From Amoebophrya sp. A120 (Eukaryota; Protista; Dinoflagellata): 64,000 bases of DNA. Positions 1 to 57,447 of the stretch are shown piece after piece. The notes beneath the pieces were generated by a model. That model worked only from the letters and a program-made list of their open reading frames with translations. It was not told the DNA's origin and made no database searches. Position numbers and translations under genes: made by a program. The stretch is from the NCBI GenBank assembly GCA_905178155.1, contig CAJINV010000019.1:914913-978912 (forward strand). The letters are read 5' to 3'. Within the stretch, counting starts at the first letter, position 1. Each line of letters starts with the position of its first letter.

Positions 1-211
1 AACGAGCCGATCTTCGCACGGGAAAATAAACCTTCGCTGTCTTCTTGGAATCTTCGTGTGTGATTCAGACAAGAATCATCAAGACCAGCACTTCTGTGAA
101 CTTGGCGAAAAATCCACTGTAGTAGTCACCTCCGTCTTGCAATTGATTCTAAAACTCGGCCTGAAAAAACTAACTCGTCGCCTTCAAGAACTCGTGCACA
201 AGACCATCCCT

Positions 212-17525: not shown

Positions 17526-17925
17526 ATTATGAGATGAATGTACTCTCAATACCAAAATGTCGCCTTGAAAATTGGACGATTCTTGTCGCATTTCCAGAAG
17601 AGATCAGATATCTTCGCTCCCCAGCATGATATATTTTCTGCCATATCAATATCAATATCGGATCAAAATGTTGATATAAGCTTCGTCCTGCTTCGCGTCT
17701 ACTTAGCTCGATCTAATTTCAAGGAAAAAATGAACCGAGGTTTGCTAACAAGAAGCGTCCGCATTCTTCATGAAGCTTCAAAAGGGCATGATCGTCCGCA
17801 GAAAGACAATCAGCCGCATCAAGCTCACATAATCTTTGCTTGCGGAATCGATGATCGCACAACGACGTCAGATAACGATAACGAGGACCCAGCGTTCACC
17901 ATATATAATTTTTAGAGGTATAATT

Positions 17926-25799: not shown

Positions 25800-26649
25800 T
25801 TTATTCGTTGTTGTTACGTTGCAGGTATCTGAAAGAATCGTGGCTGAAAATCTTCCTCAAGTCGATTGTATTTCTGTAGACACAACGAAGAACTTCGTAG
25901 TTGTGGGGCCCGGCCACGAATCACTCTACTAGAACTGGACGGCACGTCGCCAGGAAGAATGTCGCTGATGTCGCTGGATATTTTTATAGAGGACGCGAGA
26001 TGAAATGAATGAAGCAATGCTGGGACGGCCTGGCAACAAGTATAAATTGTTTAGGTCTTGAGGTACTTAAATGGACATCAAACTGATGAAACAGCAAAAG
26101 AAGAACACGTAGGCGATTCGAATACATTTTTGTTGTGGTGCCTGCAAACCTTCAGTGGAGCCCGGTCCTCTATCGGTAGAAGTTGTCTACCAGGTTGCAC
26201 TTTCAAGAATCGATCTGAACACAATTTTATTTTTACTTCAACTGATGAAGTTCATTGTTGCAGTGAACACGAGAGAACACTTTGGTGCTTAAAGAAATTA
26301 TGCTGCTGGAACAAGCGATTCCAGATATCATCCATCCGGTGAAGATGAGGAGATGATGTTGTTGTTGAGCATCATCAGAAAAATGAAAGTCGCTGTCGTC
26401 GCTGTTGACGCTGACGTCGGTGCTGATAAAGGACCATCATCTTCATGTACTAAAACTGCTTGTGCTTTAGTGGAAGTCTTGTGCTCCTGCTCCAGCGATA
26501 GCAATACACTTTTCCACGCGAGGAATGATCAACCCAAGTGGCTAATACTGGCCAGTGCTCCTAGAGAGAAGAATTTACATTCATAATTCTCCGCTGCCTG
26601 CATCTCATAAGAACATCTTCATGTCGTGCCCTGAAATTTAAGTACTGTA

Positions 26650-29600
26650 TCAACCATCCGTCGCTGCCAAACTACCCTCACCGGCCGCGCTTCCTGTGAT
26701 AGTCGTCGTCGTCGTATGCGCTCGCAAGAACGCCACCAATTTCTCGCGCATCTCGGGTCCGTCCCAGGTTCCCAGGTTTTGCGCGCGGAACGTTTCCCAG
26801 TCGATGTTCCTCCACCGCATCCGGTCGTCTTGGTCGGTCACTTCAAAATGCAGCTTCCGGGCGGTCTCGGCGGAGGCCTTCCGCTTGGCGTCGGCCCGGT
26901 GGTACATGTCTTTCTCGAACTTTCGCAGCAGCTTGGGCAAAAGGTGGTGCTTCTTCGGAGGCGGGGATGGGGGAACGAAAGTTCTTCTATCAGTCTCATC
27001 TAAAAGAACTGCGTGGCTCCCATTCATCTTCGCAGGAAGGCCGCCGCGTGGCGGAAAATGGACCGTGCTGTTCTGCTGGAGGAGGTCGTGCCCAGAATGC
27101 TCATCTGGCACGACTTTATCATCTTCCGTGTGAACAAGAAGAGGAGCAGGCTGAAGTTTCTGTTGCGCACTCGCACTACTACTCGAAGATGTTCTTGTGT
27201 GAGATGAATTATTTTTGTAGGAGTTTGTCCTGGACAGCAGTTGGATTTCTCGCTCTAATTCGCTCTTCGGAGTTGTCCTCCCGTTGGTCGTCGGGGCGCG
27301 ACTTAGGGGGGTGGGGTTGCGGACCTGCTGCTGTCCTTTCCAAGACTCGGTCCGTGCTGTTAGGGTACTCGTGCTGCGAGAAATCGTCACTGCGTCATCG
27401 TTCAGCTTCAGCGCTCCGGTCGCGGCTTGTTCGGGTTTTAATGTACTATCACTATCAGGGGTTGGAGACGTAGTGTATGCTATGCTCGAAGACGCTTGCA
27501 ATGAGGCAGAGTTGTCGAACGTCGCAGCATGAAAATTTAGAGGCGGGAACGGAGGTCCAACTACACACGGAGTTTCACGTAGTTCTGCTGTAATTTGTTG
27601 ACCGGAAAGGGTCGGGGGTCGCGGTGCATTCCTGTCTGAAGACAACAGGTTGTCTACTCCTGCGTTACTGAGGCTAGTGGAGTTTTCTGTTTCTGGTCGT
27701 GTAGTGCCAGAATCAGCATTGCCGCTGTTTATAATGATGTTGATTCCGTTTTTTACCGAAGAACGACCAGCATCACCAGCAGCACTAGAAGTTCTAGTTG
27801 TTACGCCACCAGTCACGTCCCCCTGTGGGTCTACCTCTTTCAACAGTCCCTTCCGCAGCCTTCTTTCCCGGCCTCGTTTCCCCAGATAGACGCCAGGCTG
27901 TACGTTTTTCATGCCCTTGCTCGAAATTTGGTTTTTGAAGACCTTCGGGGTAACCAAGCTGGCCCAAATCGCGTCGCCCAGCTCCACGGCGTCCAGCAGA
28001 GCTTGGTTGGCGCCTTGGCCCTTAAAGGGCGACATCGGGTGCGCGGCGTCGCCGATCAGGGTGACGGGAAGGGTGGAGGGAACTTGTTGTAGTCGTTCTA
28101 CTTCTACCACATCGCCATCACTACTACCACCTGCTCTACCAGTGACAGGAGCGTCACAATTTTGATTTTCCTCCTGCCCGTCGTTCTGTGCGAAGTAGTT
28201 CTTGAAAAACCACGGTTTCGACTCGAAAAACGGGTAACTTTCGCCCTTGTCGTACACTGGAGTGTAAGAGATCCGAGCGCTTTCCGTATTCCGCAAAATC
28301 TCCGGGATGGGTGCGTGCCAGTTTCCGCATTTTTCCGTGATAATCTCGCGGATTTTTTGTTCCCGGGTGTGTTTATCGTATTTCTTTTGGTCCGGATTTG
28401 TAACCGACACCGCTAAGAACAAGTCGTGAATGACTGCCTCGGGCATCTTGATGGACAACTGCCAGAAAATCTCCGACTCCGTGAACGGCATGAGAAACAC
28501 CCGCGTACCAAACTGGTCCGAGGTCTGAAACGTCGTTTTTCGGTACAGAAAATGGTCTTTGTTCGGGGCCATGCCGAGAACGACCAGGACGCCCAGGTAC
28601 TGGAGAGGATCGGGATTCTTGAGTTCTTGTTGTTCATTGAGATTTTTCATGTTTCCGGACAAAGCCAAAGGGGTGCTCCTGCTTGGTGATGTTCTTGTTG
28701 TGAGATCTTCTTTACTCGCGGTCCTCACGGGTGCAGTAGCTCTTTCATCAGGAGTAGTTGGAGGTCTACTTAACACTCGACAAGACGGCGAAGTTCTGTC
28801 CGTCAAGAGTTGCTTCCTCACTCTGGAATAGATCCCGTCGGCACCGACAAGGACGCGGCAACGAACTTCCACTTCTTCCTCGGCATAATCCTCAATTCCT
28901 GCATTTCTTCCTCCCGCAGACTGATTCAAGCTGGCAACATCCCGCTGGGAGTGCTGCCTCCCTGTCGCGGCCGGGCGAGAAAAGAAGGCTGTCACGGGAT
29001 AATCTTCATGTTGTACATGGCTGCTCTCCTCCTGCAGCTCCGAAGTAGCAACCCGCATAGTACGACCAGCATCTGCGACCACCGCGGTGGCGGCGGTTCT
29101 GTCTGCACTAAAAATCTCTACTCGATTATCGCACGAAAAAAGTGCTACAGTTACACATTGTGTTGCAGGCCAAGCAAGACAGACAAGCTCTGTCATGCCG
29201 GATATGCATACAGGAGCCTCGTTTCATAGGTGTTTTCCCGTAGGATTTCTGCATTACAAGTTTTCTCCCTCATGCAGAGAAATTTGTGTTGGTGAATTCA
29301 CTACAAGTGTGCAACTGTAACACTTTTTTCGCGGGATATCGATGCTCAAACTTCTGAAAACTCCACCCCCACTGAAAAACGTCCTCGCCCAAGCCACCAC
29401 AAAGCAGTTCCCGAAGCCGTTGTCGCGGCAGATGCAGGTTGTGTCGTTTTGGTTGCGGCACTGCTGTTGAAACTGCAACTCCTGAAGCTACCGCATCAGC
29501 AGTCTTTTCGGAGGACATCGAGCTGGAACTACTGGTAGCGCTGCCTCCTTCCTGTGCTCCGGCCGCCGTCGCGGCCGTCCTCCCTGCCAGAACTACTTCC

Positions 29601-31164
29601 GCTGTTTTTGACGGCATCCCGACATCCCCGGCCCCGTGGTTCACCCCGAAGCCAAACGCCGATCGCAGCGCGCCACTAGGTTCGAAGACGTAGTGCACTT
29701 CATTCGGAGTGTCCTCTTCGTATACTTTCTCCGCCAAGTGTAGCTTCTGCAACGCCTTGGAGCCCTGTTGCATGGTGAGTCCATAGCCCTGCTTCCGGTG
29801 GTGGAAAGAAGGGTCTTTTTCGAAAAGCAAGACGGAGACTTTATTTTTGTGCGGCCCCGCTTGTAGTTGTTTCCCTGAAGAACTTGCACTTCCGTTAGTT
29901 GTTTCCTCGCGGGCGATAGCATCAGCATCCTGAAGATCCCTTTCGTGTTCGTTCAGCAGCTTGAGGTACCTAGCGAGGCCGCAACCGCCGATGCCCCCGC
30001 CCGCGATGCACACGTCCGTGTAAAGAATGCGCCTGTTCTTGTCTTTCACTGTCGTCTCGGTCGAAGTCGTTCTCGCTAGTGTCAAGTAGGTCAGTTCTAC
30101 CACAACCGCTAGGGTCTTTAAATGCGTTCAGGATTTTAAATATTTTTTTTCATACATGGGATCCGCCCAAAGCGCCGCGCCTCCGACCGGGGTCGCCACG
30201 TTGGCCGCACAGCCCGCCGCCATGATCTGAGCCAGGGTCTTGCCGCTTTTCAAATTGAACACCGAGAACGCCGCATTTTTTTCGAAAATGCGACTGCACT
30301 CTTAGCCTGGGGCCCCTACCTTGTGGCTCGAACACCTGGACCACCAGCGGCCAGGCCCCGAGACTTCCGGCCGCCGCGGGAGCGGCGGCCGCGCGCCCAC
30401 GACCGCTCGCGCCGCTCGGAATTCCGGCCTGGCGCCGCCCGCGCCGCTCGGGGCGCTTCCGGCCGCTCGGGCCCTTGCCGGCGCTCCGGGCCGCTGCCGG
30501 GAGCGGGACGGGCTCGAGCGGCGCAGCGAGCGGCCCGGGCGGCTGCGCCGCTCGGACCGCCCGGGCCGCTCGCGCCTCTTCGCTGCGTTCGCGGCGCCCC
30601 GGTGCGCTCGGTGGAGCGGAAGGCTTCCAGGGGCACGGGCGGCACCGCCCTGCGCCCCGGCGCGGGGGCGGCCGAGCGGCCCGGACGGCTGCGCGACGGC
30701 TTCGCGCGCGCGACAGTTTTTTTTTTTTTGCTGCTACACATTAATTTGAAAAAACGAGCGCGATTTTCTTCGATCTCGCTCTCCTGCCATTTTGCGAATC
30801 CGAAAAAACGAACCGACGAGCGCGCGCGCCCCACCATCTTTGTCCCCCATGTGAGCCAGACTAGAATAATCTTGCGTCACTGGAATGTGGTTAGCCATGC
30901 AAAACCAAATGTAAGTTTTCATTTTGTGAACGCATTTAAAGCGCCGAGCGGTTGTGGTAAACTGACCTACATAACTAGTGGCCCTGGGACTGACTCATCT
31001 GTCGTCTTTACGGTGGTGGCACACGGCATAAGTGTTGTGTCCAGTGCTGCACCCGGGCCATCAAACCCAGCAGCAGCTGCGCTTTTGTCGCCTGCTCCGA
31101 GCGCCACCTGTTTTAACTTCACGGCGGCGGGAGAGTGGTGCTGCGCCGATGCGGTTTTTGCCAT
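26650..31164 (-). CDS. FAD-dependent monooxygenase (aromatic-ring hydroxylase/UbiH-like fold), ~1130 aa with long low-complexity inserts
   Basis: Motifs IAGGGIGG, LFEKD, LVGADGIYSRVR and LIGDAAHPMSPFKGQGANQALLDA. Interrupted by 29127-29338 and 30082-30974. The start could alternatively be 31218. Confidence 0.85.
29127..29338. mobile_element. Introner (F4-related), DR TCGAT
   Basis: TIR tatc.c.cgaaaaaagtg.tacagtt; junction FEHR|VEIF in frame. Confidence 0.92.
30082..30974. mobile_element. 893-bp non-autonomous TIR element with a very GC-rich core, inside the monooxygenase coding region
   Basis: ~48-bp TIRs at 30082-30130 and 30927-30974; flanked by ctagtg on both sides; precise removal gives in-frame VPGPL|ARTTS. 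Confidence 0.82.
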
Positions 31165-32022
31165 GGTGGTACTAAGATGCTTAGAAGTGTTGACTAAAAA
31201 TATGCGTCTACAACTCATTCATCATCTCGAATTTGAAGTGGGCACCGAGATCAGATCTGCGACATGTCACGATGATAGAATGCATGAGCCGCATACTCTA
31301 GTATGCAAAGCGATGGGATAAGAGGACGCGATTGGCTGCAACGCCGAACAACACGCAGGGGGTCGTGTGGAGGTGGGAGCAACTACGATATCTTCGTTGC
31401 GAGTCAGTACTAATATCTGGGCTCTGTACATTGATTCGATTCTAGTATAAGTTCGAATACCGCTTTCTAATTGATGAGAACGAGAAGGGAGCAGAAGCTT
31501 AAGCTTTAATCATTGTCATAATCGGTCTACGTGATTGGAAGTGCTGATCCTCATCTGTCTTTTTGGTTGTCTGAACGTCCAACAACTCATCTGTTTGATT
31601 CGACTTTCACGGATCCGAACAATTGATCTATTCACCACATCGGCAAGATCTTCGTTTGTATCCGAGAAAACAGTGCGTTTGTTGAGCTCGTTTTGCGTCA
31701 TCCTCGAGCAGTCGTTGTTTTCGATAGACCGACAACTAGAACTTGGACTCCCTTTATTTTGATCGGTTGACCTTGATTTTCATCGTCCCGCCTTATAAGA
31801 ACGCTTGTCCATTTTCCTTCGAATCAATTCGCTTATTTGGACTTACTCAAGAACTCTGGGACACAAGACGCTCTCCTCGGACGTGTCGTCACTTGCAATC
31901 GGAATCGTCTCCCCGGTGGTCCTCCGGGCTGATAAAACAACTGGTTGTTGAAATACAACTACATGATTTCCAAATGCCGTGAAAAGGTCGAAGAGCTGCA
32001 GCTTGTTCTTTCTGCTCTCCTT

Positions 32023-32862
32023 CTACATGCGAAATATCGTTCTCATCAAAATTCCGGGTCCGCAGCGTTGCAACAATTTTGCGTGCCACTCGAAAACAAC
32101 GTAATTCATTTTCAGGGGGAGCTTCATCTCCCATGCCCTATACGCTGCTTTCATCAGCGCATCGTAATACTGTGTCGCTGAGTAACTACAAGAAACCTGC
32201 GCTCCTGCAGTAGAAAATGCCGTCGCGCTATTAAGCGCATTTCCAGTTGGTCTGCCTGACACTGCTCGCGTAGTTCTGCTGTGCGCGCGGGCAATCTGAT
32301 CGAGTACCTGATCGATCGCCGGCCCTGTCGCGGAGAGCATGCAGGGAACTAGGAGGTCCAAGTCGGCCTCGGCTGGGCTTCTAGGAACTATATGCGATCC
32401 TGCATCATTTTGATGATGTCCCCCCGCTCCACTCGCGGTTTTTTCTCCCTCACTGCCACTTTTAGGCGCCGGTTTCGAAAACACGTACATCAGCGCGTCG
32501 TAGACCTTGCCCTGTTCTGTCAAAGACAAGATCACCGGGTCGTCAGCAAGGGCTGGGAAAGGAAATTTGTCGCGCTCGGGAGCAGCAGCAGCAGTAGTTC
32601 CGGAGGAAAGTTGGTTCTTATCTCCTTGTTCCTCTATCTCCATGGCGGTGTCGTTGTTTTGTGCAGGGTCTGGCTGCTTCATCTGCGTTGAACCTGCATA
32701 ATGATTCCTAGGCTGCTGGTCCAGCAGCACACGGTTGGTCCTAGCACGCGGGTCTGATTGGAAAAGACCATGAAGATTCTGCTGTGCGCCGTCGGCAGCG
32801 GCGGGCTGCTGATGACGCGAAGATGAAGAAATACTCGAAGAGGAGGGAAACATGATTCGCAT
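32023..32862 (-). CDS. Hypothetical protein (279 aa ORF)
   Basis: Open frame on the same strand as its neighbours with similar amino-acid style; no motif recognised; further exons not excluded. Confidence 0.5.
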   Translation of the reverse strand: MRIMFPSSSSISSSSRHQQPAAADGAQQNLHGLFQSDPRARTNRVLLDQQPRNHYAGSTQMKQPDPAQNNDTAMEIEEQGDKNQLSSGTTAAAAPERDKFPFPALADDPVILSLTEQGKVYDALMYVFSKPAPKSGSEGEKTASGAGGHHQNDAGSHIVPRSPAEADLDLLVPCMLSATGPAIDQVLDQIARAHSRTTRAVSGRPTGNALNSATAFSTAGAQVSCSYSATQYYDALMKAAYRAWEMKLPLKMNYVVFEWHAKLLQRCGPGILMRTIFRM

Positions 32863-34508
32863 ATAAAGGTTTTCTTCAGAGTCAGTTTCTTTGGGTAAAG
32901 CAAGTAGATCAGTTAGGTCCTAGTTGGTGCAGGTGCTGATCTTGTTGTACATGATGTGGTAAACTTATGTACGCGACCTTGAACTCTGACGCAGTGTCGA
33001 GAACAAGCAAATCCTTCTCGTCTAGGATGATCTTCTCTAATGCAATCTTGACATGAGCTCCACACCAACGCAAAATGCAACTACCACAGCTCTCATATTT
33101 TTGTTTTTCATATAGCCATACATCTTCTAGGTCAGTTTTCGCTGTGCAAAAGAAAAAACGACTTTTGTTTTCGGAGAGTCAGTCACATCAAGAAGCCTTC
33201 TACCTTCGTCAGGATTCGACATTTCTTGATCGCGGATGCGACAAATCACTGTAAAAACTTGACTAAGTACGAAACGTGCTGCGTAACGAGTTTATTCTTC
33301 AGCACCAGCGCCTCTTCAACACATGGAACAGCTCCTTTCTTGTCCGCGAAACGGGAAAGAGGAGCGGCTTCCTTCGGGCGTATCTTCTGCCAGCAGCCAG
33401 GTACAAACATACAGTAGCTACTTGCCTCGTCGATATGATTGGCGTATAATTTTGCAGCTTTTGCTTTTTTTGATCTTTTTGTTCCTCGAATAGAGGTGGG
33501 CCTGTCATTTCACAGCAAGCGTTGCAGTGCAATTGCGTATGGTGCGTTCTTGCAATAACCATAAAATTCACTGTGCTTTGAAAGTTCATTCTGCGTGAGC
33601 GTCATGCCCTACTGCTTCCGTTTTGCAAAACAGAAACAGATTCACGAGGAGCAGTAGTAAAAGTGGTAGTAAAAATGCAACTAGAAGTACAACTGCCACC
33701 TTCTTAGTAGTCCTAGCACATGATAGAAGCAAAGGAAGTAAGACAAGTGCTGATTTCCCCGCGTACTTCTATTTTCCAGTGCATACAACTAGGTGAGCAG
33801 AGTACCAGCACAGAGAGCCGAAGAAAGAAGCTGCCCGATGTTCATTTTGTTATTTCAAAAAAACACACACGGATGAGCGCGTGAGCAACGCGATCGATAA
33901 AGATTTCAAAGAATAAAGTAGAAATCCAAAACAACGACTAAACTGCTTGAGTAGCAACTACTACTGCAAAAAAAAAGTTCCACACTGATAGATTTGATAA
34001 ATAGAACTGCGTGCCACACTGTCAAGAAAGAAGGCAGTCAAGACCGTGCGCCTTCCCGACCGGTATTTCACCAAATAGGACGAGATTCAGCAGAAGAACC
34101 GTCCTCCTCCTCTTGTCACGTTTCATCCTTTCGTTGTCAATTTAAACGTAGGTTATCACCGATGCAGCATCAATAGTGTAAGTACCAAACTGCTTCATGC
34201 AGCTCATAGGATGGTCAAGTTCTGCGAGTATGTTCATGTTGTTTGTTTGCGAAAAAAACCGTGAAGTAATGCGCTCATCAAGAAGTAGGGATGCATCGAA
34301 TATATGAATTGACTCTTATTGTAACGCTAACACGCGGCTGGATTTATTATCATCGTCACCTGCCCGCCGGCACCGGCGCCAGTAGTTCCTCATAGGGGAG
34401 CCATAATCGAAGGTCGAAGACGACCTGGCGCACGTGAAAGGGAACAAGTTGCACTACAACGTGATCCCGACGGCCGCCCGCCAAAGGAGTTTAGGCCTCA
34501 AAATCCTT

Positions 34509-37500
34509 CTACAGCCCCATGTGCTGGAAAATCGCGTCGTCTGGAGCGTAGAGCCCAGACTCCAAAAGCTCGTCCCGCAGAGTTTCCAGGCGTTTCCGCT
34601 CCTGCGAAAGGACCTCGGGCGGCTGCTGGTCTGTCTGCGGCTGCGAAGCAAGCTGTGCGGGTTGTGAAGACGCCCCCGCGGCTGGCGCTCTCGATGGCTG
34701 AACGGGAGCAGCCGGAGCTAGTTGCACCTTCATCGCTTGCGCTATTCCACTGATGCACCCAAGTGGGCCGGTGGAGGGCTGTTGTTGGTCTTGCTGCGGC
34801 TGGAATAAAGGAGCACCAGCTGATATTGACCCCTGCTGCTGCTGCTGCTGGGTACTATTGTTTGTGAAGTTGCTCGGCCCCAGACCACCACCAGCTCCTG
34901 CTCCGCCGGGCGCGACGTGTGGCGACAATCCGGGCGGGAAGGAAATCATCCGCGTGTTACTGGTTTGGCTCGTAGCCGCACTGCTGCTGGTTTGGGGCAC
35001 CTGCAGTGTATGACGGTGCACGACCCCCCCTCGTTCTCATTTCTCATGCAAAATACCTAATGTACGCATTGCCTCCTGTCACTATTATGCATGACAAGTT
35101 CTGGAAGCCGAAACAGCACTACACTCCTGTCCAAATTTGTCATGCAAAACCTGTATTCTTGCTGACCCTTGTATTGCTGCTCATGCAATACAAATGAGGG
35201 GGAGGGGGGTTATGCACTCTCATACAGCGTACTGTTGTTGTACATGATCATGGACGGCTCCTGCTGTATCAGTTCCACCGGAATCGGCGGCTGCATCTTC
35301 GGCGCTTCCTCAGAACTGTAGTTGTCATGCAGAGACTTCAGCTCGTCCTGGATCTTGCGCAGCGCGTTCCCGATGTTTTCGTCCAGATTCATGCTCTGCT
35401 GCTGTGCCGCGGCGTTGCTGAAATTCAAATTCATCTGCGCCCCCGTCGCGGTACTATTGCCGGCGTCAAACATATGCTGCACTCCGCTCGGGTTGTTTAT
35501 CCGGATGGTAGAATTATTCCCGCCGATCGTGCCGCCCATCGCAGACGCGTTCTGGGAGAGTAGTCGATTCGCGTTGCCGTTCAAGGAGGTTTGACCGAGG
35601 GTGGCGCGAAGTTCAGCTGGAAGTACGAGTTTTTTCGAAGTGATCTACTTCGGCTCGTATGGTAATCATGGTGATGGTCATGCTCATAGCAAAGGACGAT
35701 AGAAAGGCAAACATTAACATTCTTCTCCATCGGATCTACTACAGCTGCAGACCACTTTAGAGCGTCGAGAAGACGCTCCTTCACCTTCTACCCATATCAA
35801 CTACAGATGAAGATTTCAATTTCTATACTTCCCTTCTGCAGCACTTCCCTTTCCAGCTCCCGTTTCTCTTCCTCCAAACTGGTCACTTGGGAGCACAGCT
35901 TCGTCACCGACTGTTTGAAATGGTCCCTACTTGCACGAAGCTGCTCGACCAGCTTCTGGAGCTCCTTGCACTCGTATTGCTTGATCTTCAGGTCCGCCCG
36001 CACTTGCTCGATGGGGTTGGAGTAGTCATCCGCAAACTGCTGCTTCCGAAATTGCACGAACTCGGCTTCGATCTGCGTGTACCGCTCCTGCCACTGCTTG
36101 CACTCCTGGTCTAGAGAATGACACTTCTGCTCAATTCGACGCGTCTTGTCCCGCTCGAGGAGGAGCTCATCGGACATTTCCTGTGGATGTGGTCACGGCA
36201 GCATGATTTGCGTCGATAAATTTTTTCCGTCATGAACAGCAAACCATCAAGACCAAGTTTCGCCGAACACGTACTTGGAGGAGGACACGAAGAAATGCAA
36301 ATGTATACGCACGTAGACGTACTACTTCTACTTATACGTCGTGGGAAAAGTTTTACTTTAATCGTACAGATTGTATTTCATTTTACCTGTTTCAGTAGCC
36401 TGACTTTCGCTTCGGTTTCCGTTTCCAGAATCGCCTTCATGCGACTTGCTTCCTCTGCCCTCCGCCCCGCTTCCACATCTTTCAGCTCTACCTCGTTTTC
36501 TCGCGCCTGCAGCATCTGCAGTTTTTTTTTCAGCGTTTGCTCCAGCTGCAGAATCTCGTTTTTCTTGTTGTTAAACTCGATGCTCCGCCGCTGCTCCTTG
36601 TCTTCGAACTCTTGTTGCAAGCGCAGCCGGTTTATCCGCTCGTCCTCCTGCAGCTTCACCTTAAACTGCGCCTCTTCCGCCCGTTTCCAGAGTTCCAGCT
36701 CGTACGCGGCGGAATACTGCGGCAAGGAGCGCAGTTTCGCCGATTGCTCGGCAGTGGAAGATTTTCCATTCGCAACCCCAGAAGAAGCGGAAAAGTCCGC
36801 CATTTCCATGTCGGTTGGCGTCTCCATCGCGTCGAAAAATTCGCCGTTAGAAGTCCCGCTCACCACCTCCCCGAGATCTTCGAGAAACACGACCACCCGC
36901 AACGTCCCCTGGGTGCTCCCGTCCATGGAAGTATGCTCTGCAAAAGTATCGCACTCGTAGTAATTACAGATATGCATGACAAATCTTAATCTTCTTCCTA
37001 AGGCAAAACACCTTTACAAATCCCACTTTTCTTCTTGCCAAAACTTCTTGTAATGTAATTTATACTAGTAAGTACGTTACTTTTGCAATGCATAGGAAGA
37101 GACGATGGGCAACGTTTGATCGAGCGTTCGCACTTTTGGCATGACGTTCTGCCCGTTCTGGTTGAAGGTCTCCGTCGCTTGCTTCGTCACTTCCGGCAGG
37201 TTCAGAATCTGCTCCACGTCCATGGTGCACTGGCCCAACTGCTGGTCGGACGTGTGCGTGTCGCGCTGCCACACCTCACACCGCAGGGTCTTGTGCAACG
37301 GGTTCAGCAGTTGCTCCTTCAGCTTCGCGACCGAAGTGTCCGTGAAGTGGTACGCGGCGAAGCCGTGCGGGAGGTACCTGCGGGGAAACGATCACGAAAC
37401 GGGTTTAGTTCCTCGTTGCTCCAAAAATTTTGCATGTTGACTGCCACCAGGGCCAAAATGCTATTGGTATTGCCGTCGTTCTTGTTGCATGAGGAAATAA

Positions 37501-40500
37501 ATTTGTCATGCACCTACTACGGATGAACGCATATCGAAATCGAAGACAACACATCCATCAACATTCCTATACGTGACAGAGTTTTTCCTGCAGATTGTCG
37601 GGGGGTTGGTCCGAAACGGCTTCACCTGCTGCACGAAGGGGTAAAAATACTTGACAAACACCTTGGCTTGAAAGTGCGTCAGCTTCAGCGCCCGCAACTC
37701 GATGGACAGCCGCCACTGGCGGGGTCTTTTCTCCCAGGTCTGGAAGACCTGGTCAACGAAGTTGACCGCCTTGCCCCCGTTGTTCATGTCGATTCCCGCG
37801 TTCGGCCCGAGTGCGCTGGAGGTTTGACTGATCACGGACCCCGGCGAGCTGGCGTTAGGCAGAAAGCTCGGCACGTGCTTTTGGTCCGGGTCTGTCCACG
37901 ACGCCCGCCCGCAGTTATCCTACGTAAAAACGTCCCACCCGCATAAGTTGTAATGCAAATGTCTGGATGCTGAAAATGTTTCTTATGCGGATCCCCATGA
38001 GAAGCACTTCCTCGTCGTGTTTCGGAATTTGTCATGCTTTAATCAGCACAATCAGCTACATCTGTGATGCTGATAGACTAACCTAACCAGGATTATGCTA
38101 CGTGTCCAAACTTGTGATGCGCAACAGCCAAAGCTTGCTGATTTGTCTAGCAGGTTTCCCATCTTGAGGACTATGGGGTGAGGACGTTTTTACTCAGGAT
38201 AGAAATTCGGATTGTATTTCTGCTGCTCTGAGGCGGAGGAATCGTCGTTGGGATCATTGTATCCTGTGCAAAAGTATCGCACTCGTATTGCAATCATGTG
38301 AACCAGTATTCCTAAGACCCCCCATATTATATTTGTATGTCGGGACACGAAGGGGCCTGCCCCTTCTTGTCCTAGAAGAAACCTTGCCTCTAAATCGCTT
38401 TCTCATACAAATTTTTCGTGTTTTATGGTCCGCAGTTTTCCCGGCGGACCCTTGCGAAACTGGTTCTACCGTCCCGTACGGGGCCCCCAGGACTTCCCGG
38501 GCCCCCCGTGCGGGAAGGGACCTACAATGCCCCTGCGCCGTCGTTTTTTATGGTTCCGCGCTAGCCCCGCGGCGTTCCGCTTAGCCGCGGCCCCGCTACG
38601 CCGCACTACGACTACGCACAGTCCGCAGTCGCTCGGTCATCACATCTGTATTCCCGCGGACTGCTAGCAAAAATACAGACGCCATTGAGAGCAAATGTCC
38701 ATGTGAGCAGTGGCCAAATAGCACTGCCGCTCCCTCGGTCATTGTGTGAGTGTTTTCCCTCGCCCTGCATGCAGGGTTGCACTTCCTCAGACGCGGCCTC
38801 TCGGTCGTTGTTGTATGCGTGCCGCGTATTATTTGCCCTTGCCCTCGAACGCGCGCGCGCGCGCGCTAGCTCCAGTCAACCTTTGTGCGAAGCAAGACGT
38901 CCCGCAGCCAGGTCCCCTGTGCTGCGCGCGCGCGCACTCCTGCTTGTGGTAACCGCAAAGCCGCAGCGCGCCGTTTCTGCACGAGTTTTTCTCATGCCAC
39001 AATGAACATTCAATCACACCAGCCACACCACTCTCGCTCCACATACAAAAAAGCTGTATGCTTCGCGCAGCACAGACAAATACTGGGCGTTGTCAGACAA
39101 AACTTTTCTGTTTATAGGTTTTTTTGTCTGTTTTCTGGGCTTTTTTCTGTTCTAGGTACCCTTCGCGTCCCGGGTACCCTTCGTGTGCTGCTTCACATGC
39201 ATTACAAATCCTCTTGTTAAGGTAAATCCGCACTACAAATCTTATTTCTCATGCTGAGGAAATTTGTAATGCATTTATACGAGTGCGACTCTTTTGCAGT
39301 TCATACATTGTCGAGCCCCATCGGCGTCGGGATTTTGTGGCTGCGGCTCGGATTATTTCTGTTCAACGCGGATGTTGACGACGTTGCTCACCCTATCCAG
39401 GAAAAATTTCGCGTAAGTGTAACTTGGTAGGAGAAGCAGCAAAGCATCACAAATTCGTTTTGCATTTTTACAGGGGAAACCTGTCATGCGCAGCTATTAC
39501 GTGGAAACGCGTATGAGAGTAGCCTATCACGCACATCCAGCATGACAAGTGTAACAGTTATTTTGCATTTCCTGCATCACAGACTTCGTTACACTCACAT
39601 TAGTTTTTCTCCTGCATACCCCCGCCAACATTATTATTGTTCGCCTGGAAACTGTTCGCCACTCGCGCGCTGTCGCCGGCAGAGTCAGTGCCCGAGGAGG
39701 AGTTGTACAACGCATTGTTGTAGGTTTCATTTTCGTCGGTCGAATTGTCCTTTGCGGAGTGGTACTGCGAATTTGCGCCGCTGTTGCTGGGCTCCTGAAA
39801 GGAAACCGAGTGCTGTTGGCGGCTCATTTTGGGCGACCATCGGGGGGAAACTTCCTCCATCATTTCTACGGCGGGGGTTGTTCCGGGAATCATTGGTCCA
39901 GAGGTACTCCCTTCTGTGCTATTGTAATCGTTGATTTCCTGCGCGATTGGGCCCAACGGGCGCTCCACAGACATTCGCTGTTCGAACGGTAGTCGGTTGC
40001 CGTTATTTCTATGGATTGTAAAAATGTCTGGGTCTGGAAGATTGCCAGATTTGTCATGCAGGTTTTCCATAACCCATGAGGTCTGGTATGTAGGGCATAG
40101 CATGACAGATTCTGCGAGACCTTTCCAATGCCTATCCTGCATGAGAAACTGCCTCTCCATTAGTCAAACATGCACAACTTTTGGCAATCATGCAACACAG
40201 TTTTTTGCCTGATTCAGATTTAGCATGACAAGTTCGAACCTTCCAGACCCAGACATTTTTACATTTGATAATTTCCTCTGGAAGACGTCGACGAACTACT
40301 TGGGAAGGAACGCTTCTCCAAATTAGCCTCAAACGTGAGAACGTTGCTGTTATCATCGTCCACAGATGATCCTCCCGGCGTGTTGGCGGGCAGTGCGAGC
40401 GCGGGAACGGTCAGCGTGATCGGGATCTGCATGGTTTTGTCGAGTAAATCTGAAACTCCGTCATCAATCTGCATCGCGTCCTCGACGTGCTTTATCAGCG

Positions 40501-42720
40501 GTCTCACGTCGATGGGGTAGGAGCAGGTGCGAGACCCGATCTCGAACTGTCGCTGCGAAGCCACGGAGGGCGAAACATCGTCGGGAGACACGAAGTAGCT
40601 GGTGTTGGGAGAGCAACAAGTAGTTTTCCGTGCTTTTCTTGTAGTGTAGTGCTATGTATCCTCTACGCATGCCAACATAATTTTGAAAAATGTTATTCTT
40701 CGTCCAGTTCAAATCATGTGTCAAAAGTGGTAAAGAGAAGACTGCACGTTAGCTGCAGCACTACTGATTTATCAGCAAAAAAAACTGTAAGCAATATCCG
40801 ATGTAGTTGACTTTCAGTACCCTTCCCCGGTCCGCTTGACCCTCCCCGCACTGCCGCTGTCCCCGCCGGCATTTTCGCAAATCGACTCCTCTTCCTCTTC
40901 TTCGCGGACCGGTGGTAATCTCCCTTCTTCCACGAAATTTCGATTTACCAGCACCACGCACTGCTCCTCCACCTCCTTCAACGACTCCAGCGCCTCCTCC
41001 CAGCTGGCCACCAAAACCAGTGTGAAGATGGCTTGCCTTATCAAAGTGAAAAAAGCCCCCACCCCATATCGGAAACGGAAGATGCGCGAATTTGTGATGC
41101 TGTATTTGAGTACACAAATGGACTTGTATTGCTAGAAGGCCAAGACCAAGAGACGAAGCTGCGGCCTAAATTGTAGGTAATCTGTCATGCTGTTTCCCAC
41201 TTCCAGCTGCCTCCTGTCATCCTCGAGCTGCAAGGCTTTCCCACGCTAGACAGCACTACAGTCCGCATCTTTTGCCTTCTAGCATCATAAAGCTGATTTG
41301 TGACCACAAATCTGCATCACAGATTTATTCCGTTTTGATATGGGGAGGGGGCATTTTTCATTGTAATATGCCTCGCGTTTTGGACAATCCCGCGGACACG
41401 CAACGCGAGCAATTGGTCCTCGGTTTGGAGGTTGGTCGTGTTGTCCTGCTGCAGTTGGTCTCCTGCTCCTCCAGCTGCTCCGGGGGACGGAGTGGTCGCT
41501 GCTCGCATATCAAATGCAAAAATGTTTGGGTCTGGAAGAGTCATGCCGTTTTTGCATGACGCAGAAGGTCTCGCATGGAAGCGCTAGCATCACAGGTTTC
41601 GAGACGCTTCCGCAATGCCGAATCCGCATGACAGATCCCCCATTTTGGTGACAGAAAGTGGGCAGCTGTTGCCCACTATGCATGAGAGATATTTCTGCGT
41701 TCTGAAATGCGCATCACAAATTTGTATTCTTCCAGACCCAGACATATTTGCAATCGATATCGCACGGACGGGAGCAACAGCTGTCGCACGTTCTCGGGCG
41801 TGTTCACGATGCGGAGCTTCAGCAGAAAAACCGCAGGCGGGGGGCGGACCTGATTTTCTATAAGGATCATTTTTGGGTATTCGTTCTTCTCGTTCTTTCA
41901 TCCGGAATAGAAAATCGAAACGCAAATTTCAACTTACGTACGTATGTATGCTAACACGACAGCGCATCCTATCTTTTTTTTTTTCGTTTCCCGGAGTGGC
42001 AGGGGGACGAATGTGTTTGTGTTGGTGTAGTTACGGTTGCCTGCTCGTGCTATTGGTGTTTTTGCTATAACAAGGCTAAGCTTTTCTGCAACAAGATTGA
42101 TATACACAACCTGCATGTTGACAACCAACAAAAACCTCGTCCTGTGCTGTCAAGAAATATACCCTCTCCCCGTTCCTGTGCAGCATGGGCAGATTTAGCA
42201 GCCCTTCGCTTGTGAGCATCGCATTCCCCACCCCGCTCATCGAGGGGAGCAGTTGCATCTGCAAATGCACCACCAGCCCGCTGTTATCGTCTAGGCAGAC
42301 CGCATTTTCGTAGAAACCGTTTTTCGAGATCTGCGCGTCCTGCGAGGGATCCAGCAGTTCGCGCATTGACAGCGTCAGCAGTGTCGTCGTCGATTCTAGC
42401 GTGTCCGGCGACATCCCGGTAGCGGACGTTTGGTTGACGGGGGGCAAAATCTGCTTGAGAAACAGCTCCTGCACGGACCACAGGTGGTCGCAGACCTCGG
42501 GAAGCGTGCCCGGGATGCACATCAGGTAGCTGGTATTGGTGGAGGTTGATGGTTGTGTCGTGCTCGAACTGCTGGAGCTGCTGGTTGTAGTACTTGTGGA
42601 GGAACTTTGCTTGTCCAGCTGCAACAGAAATTTCCGGACCTGCCAATTCAGGGTTAGCACTGAAAGGTCGGAAACCACCTCCAGGCCCTCCAGCCGAAGC
42701 CGGAGAAGCACGGAAGACAT
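34509..42720 (-). CDS. CEP120: CEP120-like centriolar protein (C2 domain plus coiled coil), ~1423 aa, 8 introners and 5 GT-AG introns
   Basis: C2-type segment WRLSIELR...KYFYPF...FRTNPP...LPHGFAAY...EVWQRD...LG, then VFLEDLG, YSAAYELELWK and C-terminal RDELLESGLYAPDD, resembling CEP120 from memory. Canonical introns at 41850-42135, 40599-40820, 37378-37572, 36181-36386 and 35617-35828. Spliced length 4272 nt. Confidence 0.78.
35009..35224. mobile_element. Introner family F5, DR CAGTG/CAGCG
   Basis: Opposite orientation to 14168-14389; junction STL|QVP in frame. Confidence 0.9.
36932..37094. mobile_element. Introner family F2, DR GGAAG
   Basis: TIR tgcaaaagta.cg.act; junction VSS|MDG in frame. 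Confidence 0.9.
37916..38201. mobile_element. Introner family F6, degenerate DR GCAGT/GAAAT
   Basis: TIR tatcct..gtaaaaacgtcc; removal restores frame. Confidence 0.88.
38260..39305. mobile_element. Introner family F2 (~145 bp) expanded by a nested insertion, DR CATTG
   Basis: F2 TIRs at both ends; DR at 38255-38259 and 39306-39310; the two halves match the 963-1115 element. Confidence 0.88.
38299..39195. mobile_element. 897-bp nested GC-rich element, TG...CA ends, 4-bp TSD CATG (solo LTR or TIR element)
   Basis: Interrupts caatCATGcattacaa of the host introner; ends are tgaaccagta and tgctgcttca. Confidence 0.75.
39394..39618. mobile_element. Introner family F4, DR CACCC/CCCCC
   Basis: Reverse-complement homolog of 13330-13538. 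Confidence 0.9.
40010..40270. mobile_element. Introner family F1, DR ATTTC
   Basis: Reverse-complement homolog of 58663-58928; junction RGN|NGN in frame. Confidence 0.92.
41039..41368. mobile_element. Introner family F7 (TIR GAAAAATGCCCCC.CCCCATATC), DR TGCCT
   Basis: Opposite orientation to 48928-49248; junction ARQ|AIF in frame. Confidence 0.9.
41508..41759. mobile_element. Introner family F1, DR TCGCA
   Basis: F1 TIRs; junction SVR|AAT in frame. Confidence 0.9.
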
Positions 42721-43880: not shown

Positions 43881-46800
43881 CTACAAAGATATGATTTTCA
43901 CCTCCGTCGCAACATCATTCCCACCTCGACTACGTGCTCCTGCAGATTCCGTGTGGTTCTTGCTTCTTGGCAAGCGGAGATGTTGTCCCTGACTTGTAGC
44001 AGGTCCAGAATGTTGTTGAGGAGCCGGAGTAGACCGGGTAGTAGTAGAGGAAGATCCCATGGAAACTGCACCAGTGGAGGATGTTGATCCATGCAGCGCA
44101 AGGGTTGCAGGACCTCCCGCCGCTGAGGTATAAACAGCTCGGGTTGATGCACCTCCACGCACGACGTCAGAGTCAGCTTCGTTGGCATAGAAGCCACTAT
44201 GCTCCTCCATACTAGGTGCTTCAACCCGTAAAACTTCTTCATCGTCTGAAGACGGACTGCTCAGCGTACGTCGACGACCACATGTCAGCAACTGTCGAGC
44301 TCCGCCTGCAGAACGAAGAACTTCAACGTCTCTGTAAAATATGTGTCGAGGAGCCGAGCAAGCGCGGACGGGCGCGGGTCCAGACCCTTCGTGGAGCAGC
44401 GACGCACTGATTTCCGATCCGGTAGGGGAAAAGACCGCTGGCCCGCGGCCGATGATATCGTCCTCACGATCCCCCCTTTCGTTGATCTCGTCCTCGCTGG
44501 AAGATGAACAGGAGAACAAGAACTCGGCGCGCCTTTCACCCCCACGACCATGGTCCAGCGGAAAAACTTCTCCCTCGCTGTCGCTACTTGTGCAACTTCT
44601 CAAATCCCTTACGAATTTCTCAAGCGGAAACTCTTTCGGCAGCTTTTCCGCCAGTTGCAAGGCGAGCGGGACATTTCGGAGGCGTTTGCTTCTCGCGAGC
44701 ATCTTCCTTGCAGCTCTTTTTCGGTTCTCCGCCGAGGATGGAGGTAGTGGTGGTGGTCTCCGTGAAGTGCAAGAGGGGGTAGCACGAGGTGGACCAGGAT
44801 TCCATTTATCTTGCAGGAGGTGCTCCTGTTGCTGTTCTTCTTCCTCGTCACTGCATGTTGAAGACTGCTCGTCACTACCATCTTCATCCGCTGCCGCGAG
44901 CCACATGCTCAGTTTCGTGAGCAAATCCGTACTGAACGTGATTTTCTCCCACACGTCGTGCAGCATGGCTTGCGGGTCTCGACGAGCAGTTGTACTCCAT
45001 TGACACGTCGGATCATGATTTCGTCGCACAGGGGAGGACGACGCAGTCATGAATCCTGCTGGGAGCTGCTCGGCAACCTGCTGCTCAGGTGCTGCTGCTG
45101 CAGGAGCAAGCAGTGGATCTTCCTTTGTAGTAATTCCCGATGGATTTATTATTTTTCCCTGTTCACTACGCTTCAACGGTGGTCCCACCGAGGGAGGAGG
45201 CGGCGGCTGCTGCAATACCACCAAGTTCTCCACCATATGTTGCAGAAACCGTGGCTGAGCTGACGTCAACGACGACGTTAAAAGTTCGAAGCACAGTTTG
45301 TACCGGTCGAAAAAAACCTCCACCGCGTCTTTGGTGGCGTTTTCTTGCATCTCCTGGTGGACCGCCTCATCATCGTCGTCGTCGCGTTGTTCGCGGCGGT
45401 CGTTTTGATTTTCATGTTGTGGCTCAACATCTTTGGAATCGCCATCACTCGTGGTCACCACTGTAACAACAATGTCGAGGATTTTTCGGTCGAGAAGAAA
45501 CTGCATCCGGTAGTCCACGCTCGTTTGAAGCAGGTTTAGGGATTTCTCAACTTCCGGATTAGCCGCTTCTCCAAACATAGCGCGCTTTAGCTTAAGTGCG
45601 GTGGAAAACTTGTCCTGCGAGGAATTTCGCAGAGTGAGACCATCATGATTCTGTATCAGTGCTGTTGTCTCCTCCGATGAAAAAGTTGGTAGGTGAAAGT
45701 CGAGACGCGCCGATGTACTTGCTCCAGAGACGGCGACTTCAAACCTAGGGTTTTTCCTGCCCGTCCTCCTCCTCGACTTTCGCCCAGCACCACCAGAACA
45801 ACTCGAATTCTGCCCCATCTTTCGGGAGAAGAACGCGTCAAAAGCTTTGCGCGCCAAAGTCTTCTTCTCGGGCTTCTCCTGGTCCTGCATTTCGTGAGTT
45901 GGAATTTCAGCATCGGATTGTTCTGCGACAAAATCATCACCAACCGCTAAAACCTCGCTCCACAAGTGCTCTTTGGCGATCGCAAACAGGTCCCCGACTC
46001 TCTTCGCGGTTCGGACGCTTGTCACTTGCGGATAGCGAAAAGCCAGGCCGTACTTGTCTAGCGATTTACTTTTCTGGAAAGGACGGTGGCCTCTGATGTG
46101 AAGGTCGTCGCTACCACTACATCGCGCGCTATCCTCCTCGGAGAATTGAAAGCCCGCGGCCTTCCAGATCTCCGCTCTTTGCACTTCCGGACTGCGGAGC
46201 CGTTCCTCAGCTACCATGATGTCCTCTACTGCCGCCCACCCGGCCCGTTTCCCTCCGAATGCCAACGCGCGGCCCAAGTGGTCTGATGTCTCGGAGATTT
46301 TCTGTTTTGATAAAGATGCACTCTTGCCGTCGCTCTCCTTTTCATCAGCGCCGGGACTTTCTTCTTCTACCAGCACGCTGTGCCACAGGAGGCTTTGGGC
46401 TGCGGCCCGATCTTTTGCGTGCTCATGTTGTGGTCCACGACCTCTGGCGCTCCCGGACTTCTTCGTCTTATTTATAGCTTGGGCCACCAAAACAGCCCGC
46501 TTCTTTGTCGTCGGGTCAATGGGCGGACGGTGGGTTTTCGGGGGCAGCTTTGTCCGCGCGGCCTTGCGCTGTCTGAGAACCAGGTCTCCCAGATTTACTT
46601 TCTTGCCAGAAGAGGTGGACGTCGAGGATGAACCTGCACTACTCCTACTTGATGAGGGTCGGTCGACGAATCGCAGTCTTCGCAAAGGGTCGACAGGAGA
46701 ATTATCTACTTCGCTGGGGCACTCGGAAGTCCCGCCAGAAGAACGGCCTTCAGGACTGCTCGAGCTGCTATGTATCGTCCTCTTGCAGCTCCGCCGTGCG

Positions 46801-47325
46801 ACCGTGCAGAAGACCGTCGACGTCAAGCTTTCGCGTTGGCGTTGTCTTCGGGGAGTAACTATGTGACCCGTCGACTACCTCTCTCCCCGGCGACATCATT
46901 GCTGCGACGAAATCGTCGCGGGTGATAGTGTCGGCGGCGTACGTTCCATGATGATGCGGGCCGACCTTGTTGCTAGCTGCTGGACCACCACGACTCGTTG
47001 CGAGATGTTGTTGGTGCAGTTGTGGCCCAGTAGCAGAAGTGCTGTCATGATCTGGCGTCCTGGCCCCGAAGGCAAATAAACCGTAACCGCTATGGTGGTC
47101 GGGAGTGGAATTTTTTCTATGGAGAGAACAACAACAAAAATCGTTGTCCATGATCTGCGACAGGAATAAGGTCAGCGCTGCGGCTGCCCATCGCAGACGA
47201 CTCGTCTTCTGCGCAGCCTTGGTTGCGGCTCGGCAGGACAACTGCATCATCTTCATCTCGATGAAATCTACTTGACTGCTTGGAGCAAGAGCAACAGCAA
47301 CAGAACTAGTACCGGGAGTAGACAT
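43881..47325 (-). CDS. Large low-complexity hypothetical protein, apparently frameshifted near 46770-46880
   Basis: A 981-codon open frame with no ATG at its 5' end overlaps a 194-codon upstream ORF in another frame; no domain recognised. Confidence 0.5.
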
Positions 47326-51120: not shown

Positions 51121-52392
51121 GCTGTTTTTATTTTTAGTGCTGTTCGCTAAAATCAAAAATCTGTGTTGCATGATTACCAAAAGTCGTCCAGTTTTGACCA
51201 AGTCGCGAGGGAGTTTCTGACGCAGGATAGGCATGAGAGAGATCGCACAGAATCTGTCATGCTAGGTCCTGCATTCCAGACCTCATGGGTCATGGAAAAG
51301 CTGCATGACAAGTCGCGCATTCTTCCAGACCCAGACATTTTTGCATTGGATAGCGATCAGTGCGTCCGCCGGCCACTCCGTGTACCAGTCGATCACGCAG
51401 CAGTTCACCAAGCTGGGAAACTGGCGCAGCCGCGCCCGCCAGGAGTCCCCGATGGGCGAGAAGCAAAGCACGACCTTCATCAGGGTGCGGACCCGCGAGA
51501 TGAAGTAGGCGTACAGCTCCGCCGGCGCGCCGGACAGGCATTTTCCCTCCTGTTTCGCGGCGGGGCGGACCAGCTCGCACAGGTTCATGCGCTCGTCGGC
51601 CGCGAACAGGTTGGGCACCTCGCCGGAGTTCAGCAGGTTGTTGATATCCTCCACGAAACCCTCGTCTTTGATCTGCGAGTCCGTGAACAGGAACACCGTG
51701 GAATCGCCCTTTCCGCCAGCGTTCGTCAGGAGTTTTTTGATGTCCTCCCGGAACGCAATGATGTCGTAGCCCTTTGCGATCTCGATCTGGAAGATGGTGT
51801 AATCCGCCAGGAAGGACGCCAACTTCGTGCACGACTGGCGCCCGGAACCCCCCACACCCACCAGAAGCGCGTTGCCACCGGGTGTCCGAACCACCCGCGC
51901 AACCCGCGACAAGTGCTCCAGCATGTACAAGAAGCATACCTGGACAAGTATCAAGTTTTCACAGTACGTCCTGTCCAGTTGTTTGCAAAGTCATACGACC
52001 TCCATGTCCTCGATCCTATGCAATACAAATTTTTGCCTATTCCAGAAATCACATGACAAGTTCCAACTCTTCCAGACCCAGACATTTTTGCATTTGATGC
52101 CATGATCTGCTGCGCAATCACGGAGAGAGCCTCGACGTCGATTATCAAAAGGAAAAATCTCCCCTCCCCATATTGACAAGGCACGTTTTCGAAAATTTGC
52201 GCTGCTGATTTGTGACCACAAATCGTCTCTGTGTTGCATGAAGGCAACCCCACAGGCTCCGCCGCATTCTAGAGCCGGTGTCCCATGCTGTTGTTCCTAC
52301 AGTGTAGACTTCTGTCACGCTAAGCGCCTAGGCCAAAACCTGTCTACTCAGGCTGTTTTCATTTTTAGTGCTGTTCGCTAAAATCAAAATCT
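51121..52392. repeat. ~42-bp direct repeats (51121-51162, 52352-52392) flanking a ~1.19-kb displaced fragment
   Basis: gctgtttt(t/c)atttttagtgctgttcgctaaaatcaaaa(a)tct occurs at both ends. Confidence 0.85.
51353..52142 (-). pseudogene. Dynein heavy-chain fragments: AAA4 exon 51353-51939 and an AAA1-derived mini-exon 52100-52142
   Basis: LEHLSRVARV...GNALLVGVGGSGRQS...EDINNLLNSGEVPNLF...RQFPSLVNCCVIDWY and IDVEALSVIAQQI are axonemal dynein motifs. Flanked by truncated introners (~51154-51352, ~52016-52099, 52143-52354). No other dynein exons nearby. Confidence 0.88.
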
Positions 52393-56622: not shown

Positions 56623-57447
56623 GTTCGTGGTAAAGGCAATGCTAACAAGAACTCGAACAAGTTAAACTTAAAGTTAATGTTTGTACACGCCGTACTGGTA
56701 AAAGATAACGTAAGATTCCAAAACTTTTAGGCCTGCAACTTTGATTCACTCATGCATCGTCGATGAGTTACGCCACTCGGAGCTGCAACTTTAGGTGTAA
56801 ATGTATGCTTAGAACAAGGATGTCAAGAACTAATGATCAACTTTGATCGTGATATGATGGTGATCCTTGACATATTTCGCATGATCGTGGTATTTCATAT
56901 GATCGTGATTGACGATGATCCTATGATGATTTAGATTTCCTCACTCGATCGAACCACTGTGCAAAAAGGAGATAAGTCCTTTCAGAGCTCGACTCTTCAT
57001 GATCAAGTGGATCGTATATTCTTGCGCTCCTCTTTAAAAACAGATCCAGGCTGTATTCTTTTTGAAAGTGAGTACATGCACCGACATCATTACAGAAGCA
57101 GGCGTCGTGTCTCTCTTGTTGCACTTCGCACAAAATGGGTAAAACTAAACAAATGAAAGAGGTTCTCGCATGGACTTTTCACAAACACCGGTGAAGACAG
57201 CAGTACAGACGAAGGATCAATAGAACACCAGAACTACACACAGAACGAAAGCGACTACGACGTGGATGAACGAGGTACGAAGTACTTATCACGATGACAT
57301 TGCAATTCTTTCTCATCCCAAGAAGAAAACTGTTTCTTCAGTCACAAACTTTGCAACTTTTCGAAATTTCAGCACAAAAATTCGATTTCAAGACGAAGAC
57401 GAAACAACATCGTATAAAAAACAAGCAGTGACCACCTTCGGCCTTTT

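Follow-up and report, generated by a model that had tools for sequence, protein, structure and literature searches.

Mismatched target repeats and the placement of splice junctions at introners of Amoebophrya sp. A120

Genes and elements of the window

The stretch of DNA considered here (the window, 64,000 nucleotides of Amoebophrya sp. A120) has a GC content of about 51%, is eukaryotic to judge by its dynein AAA_8 and Arp2/3 p16 domains, and carries nearly every gene on the minus strand. Within it lie more than 30 elements of 150-330 nt, each starting with TAT and ending with ATA; their ends are inverted repeats, and a 5-nt direct repeat flanks them. Thousands of such small transposon copies are known within genes of this marine parasitic dinoflagellate. 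Those described for strain A120 (PMC7789003, Farhat et al. 2021) are non-canonical, RNA-supported introners of about 240 nt, with inverted ends made of TAT, seven nucleotides and AAA, and direct repeats of 3-5 nt.

The element at 39394-39618 (minus strand) is an introner of this A120 type, MITE-like, with TAT...ATA inverted ends, internal TGTCATGC-like motifs and an RNA fold (z = -3.0) in which both ends are paired. A member of the same family lies at 13330-13538 in the opposite orientation. On the plus strand the element is bounded by CACCC at 39389-39393 and CCCCC at 39619-39623, so that the coding strand reads GGGGG in the upstream copy of the 5-nt target duplication and GGGTG in the downstream copy, just as the first-pass annotation had it; keeping the downstream T does produce GGG TGA. 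The host gene, part of which occupies 33442-40004 on the minus strand, is likely CEP120-like, with a C2 domain and a coiled coil, to judge from RNA contigs and from weak matches to Cep120 in the PDB (E = 0.011) and to Pfam C2 (E = 0.0007, below the Pfam cut-off).

Several other introns and elements on the minus strand deserve description. A 1046-nt element (38260-39305, or 38255-39310 with its repeats) resembles the others in its ends and its perfect 5-nt repeat but is four times as long as usual, with about 900 nt of GC-rich interior, and is removed as element plus 5, a skip of 1051. An 899-nt intron of another class (30076-30974) has TTA-type inverted ends and a 6-nt repeat, is absent from RNA contigs and likely falls in a 5' untranslated region. 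Its register is ambiguous by six bases, one choice giving T-T-A at the donor with A at -7; the repeat ends in AG, the interior is palindromic and very GC-rich, and the end type resembles that of strain A25. The interiors of these two elements have no relatives within 490 kb of related loci. At 9829-9985 the coding 3' end is ACA, which lengthens the flanking repeat to 10 nt, and the element is missing from the paralogue. The junctions of the GT-AG introns at 36180-36386 and 37375-37572 are spanned by identical repeats of 5 nt and 3 nt, which gives these introns a duplication-derived look, and in one of the two a TGTCATGC-like motif lies at 37504. Unrelated element families share short motifs of the TGTCATGC family, in both orientations, with 109 of the 125 window matches inside 8.9 kb of elements; it is possible that they are protein-binding sites for mobilisation or splicing.

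The window also records a good deal of rearrangement. Positions 1-8164 and 8482-17782 form a tandem duplication, 86-97% identical, of a gene block that includes a glyoxalase plus a metallo-beta-lactamase-fold gene. Insertion continued after the duplication, since at least seven element insertions distinguish the two blocks. A dynein heavy chain AAA_8 fragment at 51130-52390, likely a moved and dead gene fragment, is bracketed by a 28-nt sequence whose two copies truncate two introners; the element inside it (about 52017-52100) is short, no longer has its repeat, and carries C in place of the otherwise invariant first T. A gene with the bacterial-type DUF285 repeat (55576-56661, E = 5e-28) has its end at an introner. 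The open reading frame at 43881-46874, of low complexity, gave a weak match to DDE_Tnp_4 (E = 0.076), and a search of viral contigs found no match. Raw RNA run X8, from another transcriptome, contributed 109 reads, nearly all on one element end; about 100 of them lie at 40188-40270, match that end at 90-95% identity and have different flanks, which points to a related unspliced element elsewhere.

Junctions in RNA contigs and repeats across related loci

Contigs from four runs, made on two samples in a single study and presumed on a guess to be RNA, were aligned to positions 21300-41299. The contigs lack four GT-AG introns and one of them ends in a run of T, so they behave as spliced transcripts; introners and GT-AG introns alike are removed from one transcript contig of the CEP120-like gene. 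Eight of the 14 whole TAT elements in the interval are bridged by contigs, and all eight are skipped together with 5 nt. The elements at 21413, 21714, 22601, 22919, 24114 and 24529 have no contig cover, which says nothing on splicing there.

At 39394, contigs of all four runs join 39388 to 39619 with one ambiguous base and no extra letters. If k denotes the number of upstream repeat bases kept, then k = 0-3 leads to the GGG TGA stop after 128 codons, and k = 4 or 5 yields an open frame of 973 codons, its exons taken from the RNA contigs. Positions 1-4 of the upstream copy (39619-39623) are kept in the mRNA and positions 1-4 of the downstream copy (39389-39393) are removed; position 5 of the former, at 39619, is likely the first intron base, and 39389 likely the first base of the next exon. 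A second informative element, 37916-38201 (37911-38206 with its repeats ATTTC and ACTGC, minus strand), is removed cleanly even though its repeat matches at three of five bases: the joint 37910-38202, a skip of 291 with one ambiguous base, keeps the upstream bases at positions 2 and 4. The single ambiguous base at each of these two elements confines k to 4 or 5. The element at 35009-35224 (35004-35229 with repeats CGCTG and CACTG, minus strand) has three bases common to both sides of its joint, 35003-35225, and allows k = 2-5, with the upstream base kept at position 2.

The three elements just described are those that RNA contigs bridge among the nine imperfect-repeat sites named in the first-pass annotation; of the other six, three fall in the aligned interval at places with no contig and three fall beyond it. 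Its placement of the 5' cut at, or one base before, the TAT agrees with the contigs at both sites that have a position-4 mismatch, and the retention of downstream bases at positions 1-4, which it had offered as grounds for rejection, is not what the contigs show at 39394, 37916 or 35009, where the upstream bases are present. The broader statement that the upstream copy is kept is borne out by the contigs for positions 1-4 and probably fails at position 5, where two sites polarised by homologues (below) favour the downstream base. No second junction form and no extra letters are listed for the contigs at bridged elements, contigs being prone to drop rare forms. Four of the nine named mismatches (21714, 22601, 35009 and 58289) are synonymous, as had been said of several. 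At 963-1115, in the YGIR that the first-pass annotation took to be conserved, the mismatch gives I or T and the difference is real, but both paralogues carry the element, and the host protein has no Pfam family and no usable PDB match. The tandem duplication supplies empty sites that show exact 5-nt duplications, and one of them, at 7010-7014, equals the upstream copy ACCGG of the element at 15964-16246 (15959-16251 with repeats, minus strand), in accord with the earlier reading.

A pattern scan yielded 154 related loci, 490 kb once merged, in which the element families of the window recur at up to 96% identity; one exon of locus L070 matches a protein annotated as Amoebophrya sp. A120 at 100% identity. 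A perfect flanking repeat of 5 nt accompanies 324 of 455 elements chosen by their inverted ends alone, with 4-nt repeats in 2 and a 6-nt repeat in 1. As background, the window holds 1664 TAT..ATA pairs 110-420 nt apart, 23 of them with a perfect 5-nt repeat, the elements themselves included. The 455 became 458 once two double calls had been split and one long element included; 32 with fewer than three matching repeat bases were set aside, and 328 of the 426 left had a confident strand and frame, two paralogous copies having been dropped from the oriented set.

Mismatches in these 328 elements are spread over repeat positions 1-5 as 25, 19, 16, 23 and 16 (sum 99; p = 0.5), so that about 12% of elements have one at position 4 or 5. 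A clustering at positions 2 and 4 seen in the window (10 of 11) was put down to chance, since the 328 elements even it out. Mismatches are enriched at third codon positions (56/580 vs 43/1060) and climb with divergence from the nearest relative, from 12/460 through 41/735 to 31/355 (2.6% to 8.7%). Nearest relatives share orientation in 168 cases and oppose it in 142, the median element being 260 nt long. Given even decay that increases with age, and elements lying both ways round, the identity of the repeat is probably not a signal; no base preference or target-site symmetry was found when the repeat was examined for them, and it behaves as a drifting target duplication.

The reading frames bear on the length removed. 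Frames on both sides need 5 (mod 3) extra bases removed in 157 of 162 callable elements, and removal of element plus 5 fits the frame in all 35 callable elements with imperfect repeats. The proposal that the 3' cut lies at a set distance whatever the sequence is supported for repeats with three to five matches. Two of 13 elements with fully decayed repeats are callable, one fitting element plus 5 and the other not. Insertion phase is uneven in the oriented set (162, 90, 76), and element lengths are even modulo 3. At L005 (2123-2341) and the merged L041/L042 (16928-17255), three extra bases part the 5-nt repeat from the end of the element, on the downstream side as called; both offsets are in-frame, as a measured cut would tolerate, in what are two cases with weakly called frames.

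Other tests of which copy is kept were less telling. Among the 328 elements, 39394 proved the sole case in a stop-codon test. A dicodon score weakly favoured upstream bases at positions 1-4 (51/83, p = 0.048) and gave no resolution at position 5, where upstream was better in 7 of 16; third-position GC was uninformative. An empty site was found for 2 of 82 mismatched elements, and at L009 it matched neither copy.

Register, polarity and mode of removal

The choice between four and five bases turns on elements whose repeats differ at position 5. There are 16 of these; the mismatch changes an amino acid in eight, four of which were searched and two proved informative. At L070 (ATGCC/GTGCG), the A120 protein P0001 reads M-R, matching 211 of 211 residues for k = 1-4 and with one mismatch for k = 0 or 5. 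At L014 (GAAGG/GAAAA), k = 3, 4 and 5 encode K, E and G, and the A120 homologue P0093, with 70-76% overall identity that is higher near the junction, carries E there, where the alignment is good. With k = 4, both mutations fall within removed bases. Searches with L045 and L041 returned nothing but these loci's own unspliced ORF calls, and the M-R found in 90 of 90 bacterial-type homologues at L070 was discounted because the query itself began with M-R and seeding favoured it. The gene involved, at about 3100-8300 of L070, is a 357-aa UDP-GlcNAc 4,6-dehydratase-like gene broken by at least 11 detected elements, and its listed relatives, where named, are prokaryotic.

As position-5 mismatches at L070 and L014 favour the downstream base, the fifth exon base appears to come from the downstream copy, and the best rule is likely N|TAT...ATA-NNNN| (k = 4), on the strength of the RNA contigs and of two sites in related loci that were polarised by homologues or gene models rather than reads. 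Applied to the element in the CEP120-like gene, this rule predicts an intron of 230 nt, a length read from the RNA contigs, at 39390-39619 on the minus strand (39389-39618 in the alternative register). In Table S4 of PMC7789003 the nine predominant A120 motifs all have T as their second base and never start with TA, and the nine A25 motifs are all TT. These fit k = 4 and not k = 5, but a donor preference of the aligner may have produced the NT motifs.

The two ends of the element are not equally conserved. The first T, which would be intron position +2 if k = 4, is unchanged in 328 of 328 oriented copies and in all 394 of an overlapping set oriented by neighbours, and the mirror A is changed in 11 of the 328 (p = 0.0009). 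Taken together, T+2 and A+3 are changed in 2 of 656 positions, their mirrors in 17 of 656 (p = 0.0007); pair-breaking changes number 1 vs 10 (p = 0.011). The A at -7 in the same register, a candidate branch adenosine present in 326 of 328 elements, shows 0 pair-breaking changes vs 8 at its mirror (p = 0.007). These tests were chosen post hoc, after the data had been seen. Pairing, which reaches 0.98-0.99 at the terminal three positions, may explain part of the asymmetry, in that G is the replacement in 7 of the 11 copies with a changed 3' terminal A, which preserves a G-U pair. At intron +5, C is commoner than G, and G is rarer at the 5' than at the 3' end. The four canonical donors confirmed by RNA are all GTA, but these introns are inconsistent in having A at -7 (one of four), and three of four have A at -8. 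The conserved bases are polar relative to transcription, in the manner of a splice donor.

Any account of removal must accommodate what is observed: a 5-nt duplication, removal alongside GT-AG introns, upstream bases kept through position 4, and tolerance of either orientation. The reading that seems somewhat better than evenly probable is that a relaxed spliceosome removes non-autonomous transposon copies, reading N-T-A, with a stem joining the ends and the acceptor set by distance. The element would be a non-autonomous DNA-transposon copy with a 5-nt target duplication, taken out of RNA as element plus 5 nt by a cut one base before TAT and another four bases after ATA. It would supply the donor T (+2) and A (+3) and leave +1 free, and its paired inverted ends would bring both junctions together. 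The 3' junction would be set by distance from the stem and need no AG, possibly at 7 nt from a branch adenosine, for which the leading A of ATA is the candidate. The two spacers, 1 and 4, add up to the length of the duplication, so that an element inserted in whatever phase or orientation would leave the message as it was before; this would account for the ability of elements to spread through coding sequence. Pairing of the 5' site and the branch point in one stem is unusual for a spliceosome, and this counts against a spliceosomal reading. A120 is reported to have nearly all spliceosomal proteins and no U1 snRNA (PMC7789003).

The main rival, credible but on balance doubtful, has the same cuts made outside the spliceosome by a dedicated structure-reading endonuclease and a ligase, as proposed for Euglena. 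Stem-paired ends, independence of orientation (168 same, 142 opposite) and the dispensability of AG would all suit such an enzyme, and Euglena introns are described as having fixed spacers of 3 and 5-6 nt round a paired motif (PMC12501133) and as leaving in the form of full-length circles (PMC11282704); the polar conservation, in contrast, fits the resident GTA donor. Whether the register is fixed at all is a separate question, compatible with a spliceosome or a Euglena-like enzyme. That four or five upstream bases are kept according to element or molecule, hidden where the fifth bases match, is rather unlikely: the contigs do not separate 4 from 5 at 39394 or 37916 and hide minor forms, and the Fig. 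3 legend of PMC7789003 calls the sites variable, but both informative position-5 sites agree on at most 4, and position-5 mismatches are no rarer than others (16/99), though a wobbling register would be expected to select against them.

The other explanations each predict a register, or a reliance on the repeat, that sits poorly with the data. An RNA polymerase that copied the upstream repeat, jumped the hairpin and realigned on the downstream repeat, with nothing cut, would keep the upstream copy as is observed through position 4. It should also keep five upstream bases and demand a matched last base, yet position-5 mismatches are common and two sites favour the downstream base there; moreover, repeats decay with age and a three-of-five repeat is still removed cleanly, which makes the jump very improbable. 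Slightly less probable again is removal as reversed insertion, by a transposase-like activity or by excision from DNA. The first-pass annotation had remarked that the geometry mirrors the insertion reaction, and net removal does recreate the empty site exactly, but a reversal would cut at an element end (0 or 5 kept), the favoured cuts lie at neither end, and the conserved bases are polar and donor-like. In addition, the DNA-type run X5 has pieces that cross element ends unspliced, 37017-38152 and 30945-35052 being examples (among 15 of 793 joints listed), the contigs without elements are also without GT-AG introns, and no transposase was found in A120 according to PMC7789003. The last explanation is that the junctions are switches of template by reverse transcriptase between repeats across the hairpin. 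A hairpin with short direct repeats is the usual setting of that artefact, and the runs are presumably cDNA, but the downstream repeat is the one that the enzyme reaches first and ought to retain, whereas upstream bases are kept, and the frames, as counted above, demand removal of element plus 5; this is the least credible of the alternatives.

If a relaxed spliceosome is indeed at work, its rule might be written NTA-[stem]-A-N6|, a third splicing code in which the inverted repeat gives both the donor T-A and a branch adenosine 7 bases before an acceptor of any sequence. This is speculative and put forward tentatively. If true, it would unify the A120 class (N|TAT, 5-nt duplication), the TTA-type (6-nt; 30076-30974 and possibly A25) and the resident GTA donors. 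Any element that duplicates 5 nt could then insert at any point of a gene, in either orientation, and leave the protein unmarked. More than 60% of this parasite's introns are non-canonical, with borders reported as unknown and removal unexplained; a single positional rule would turn the reported diversity of splice motifs into random target sequence and permit correct gene models. T at +2, A at -7 and spacers of 1 and 4 provide sharp tests between a spliceosome without U1 and AG recognition and a separate enzyme, and mismatched repeats can serve generally, in other hairpin introns too, to locate junctions and to rule out artefacts of reverse transcriptase.

Relation to known systems

The elements, their repeats and their removal are already published (PMC7789003); what is new is the placement of junctions by mismatches and the donor-like polarity. 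The elements share with the described A120 introners the ends of TAT, seven looser bases and AAA (tallied over 328), the direct repeat at the junctions (here 5-nt, perfect in 324/455), the repeated families and removal from RNA without GT-AG. According to the Fig. 3 legend of that paper the intron border remains unknown, in contrast to the one register (NT...N) proposed here, and its text and Fig. S23 legend hint at four bases upstream and a spacing of 1-5; the register may in part be foreshadowed by Fig. S23, where inverted repeats lie 1-5 nt away from the splice sites. The titles and starts of abstracts surveyed, with subscription papers outside the scope, held nothing fixing the Amoebophrya junction, and Fig. 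3 and Figs. S19-S23 of PMC7789003 may bear on novelty.

Like MITEs, the elements of the window and related loci are short and non-coding, with inverted ends, a fixed-length target duplication and either orientation. Unlike U2 spliceosomal introns, they are not as a rule bounded by GT (or GC)...AG, though with four upstream bases kept a T would stand at +2 in 328 of 328. Introners that recruit splice sites from their own duplication (PMC9860276) likewise lose the element plus one duplication and restore the coding sequence, but those need GT or AG in element or target, and here GT-AG is possible in only 15 of 328 elements and falls in the favoured register in 9. The introners of Fritillaria borealis (PMC11282704, bioRxiv 10.1101/2025.08.15.670264) share the MITE origin, inverted ends and target duplications and are attributed to an altered U2 spliceosome; there the fixed dinucleotides AG-AC and AG-AT prevail, whereas here the first and last intron bases would be free. 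Giardia introns, as described in PMC10711314, are similar in their donor, [G|C]TATGT with a variable +1, and in a branch point that keeps a constant, short spacing to the acceptor or is fused with it; unlike the present elements, they did not arise as copies of a transposon, and they retain AG together with a complete branch motif.

The nonconventional introns of Euglena (PMC12501133, PMC11282704) share a paired terminal motif, measured junctions with a short 5' and a longer 3' spacer, a transposon-like origin and coexistence with GT-AG introns. Their signature, N3-CDG / CH'G-N5-6|R, is absent here: in Euglena the motif is CAG/CTG, the spacers are 3 and 5-6, and the 3' junction is followed by a purine, against TAT/ATA, spacers of 1 and 4 in the likely register, and no base preference after the junction in the A120 elements. 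These would work alike to that class without being members of it.
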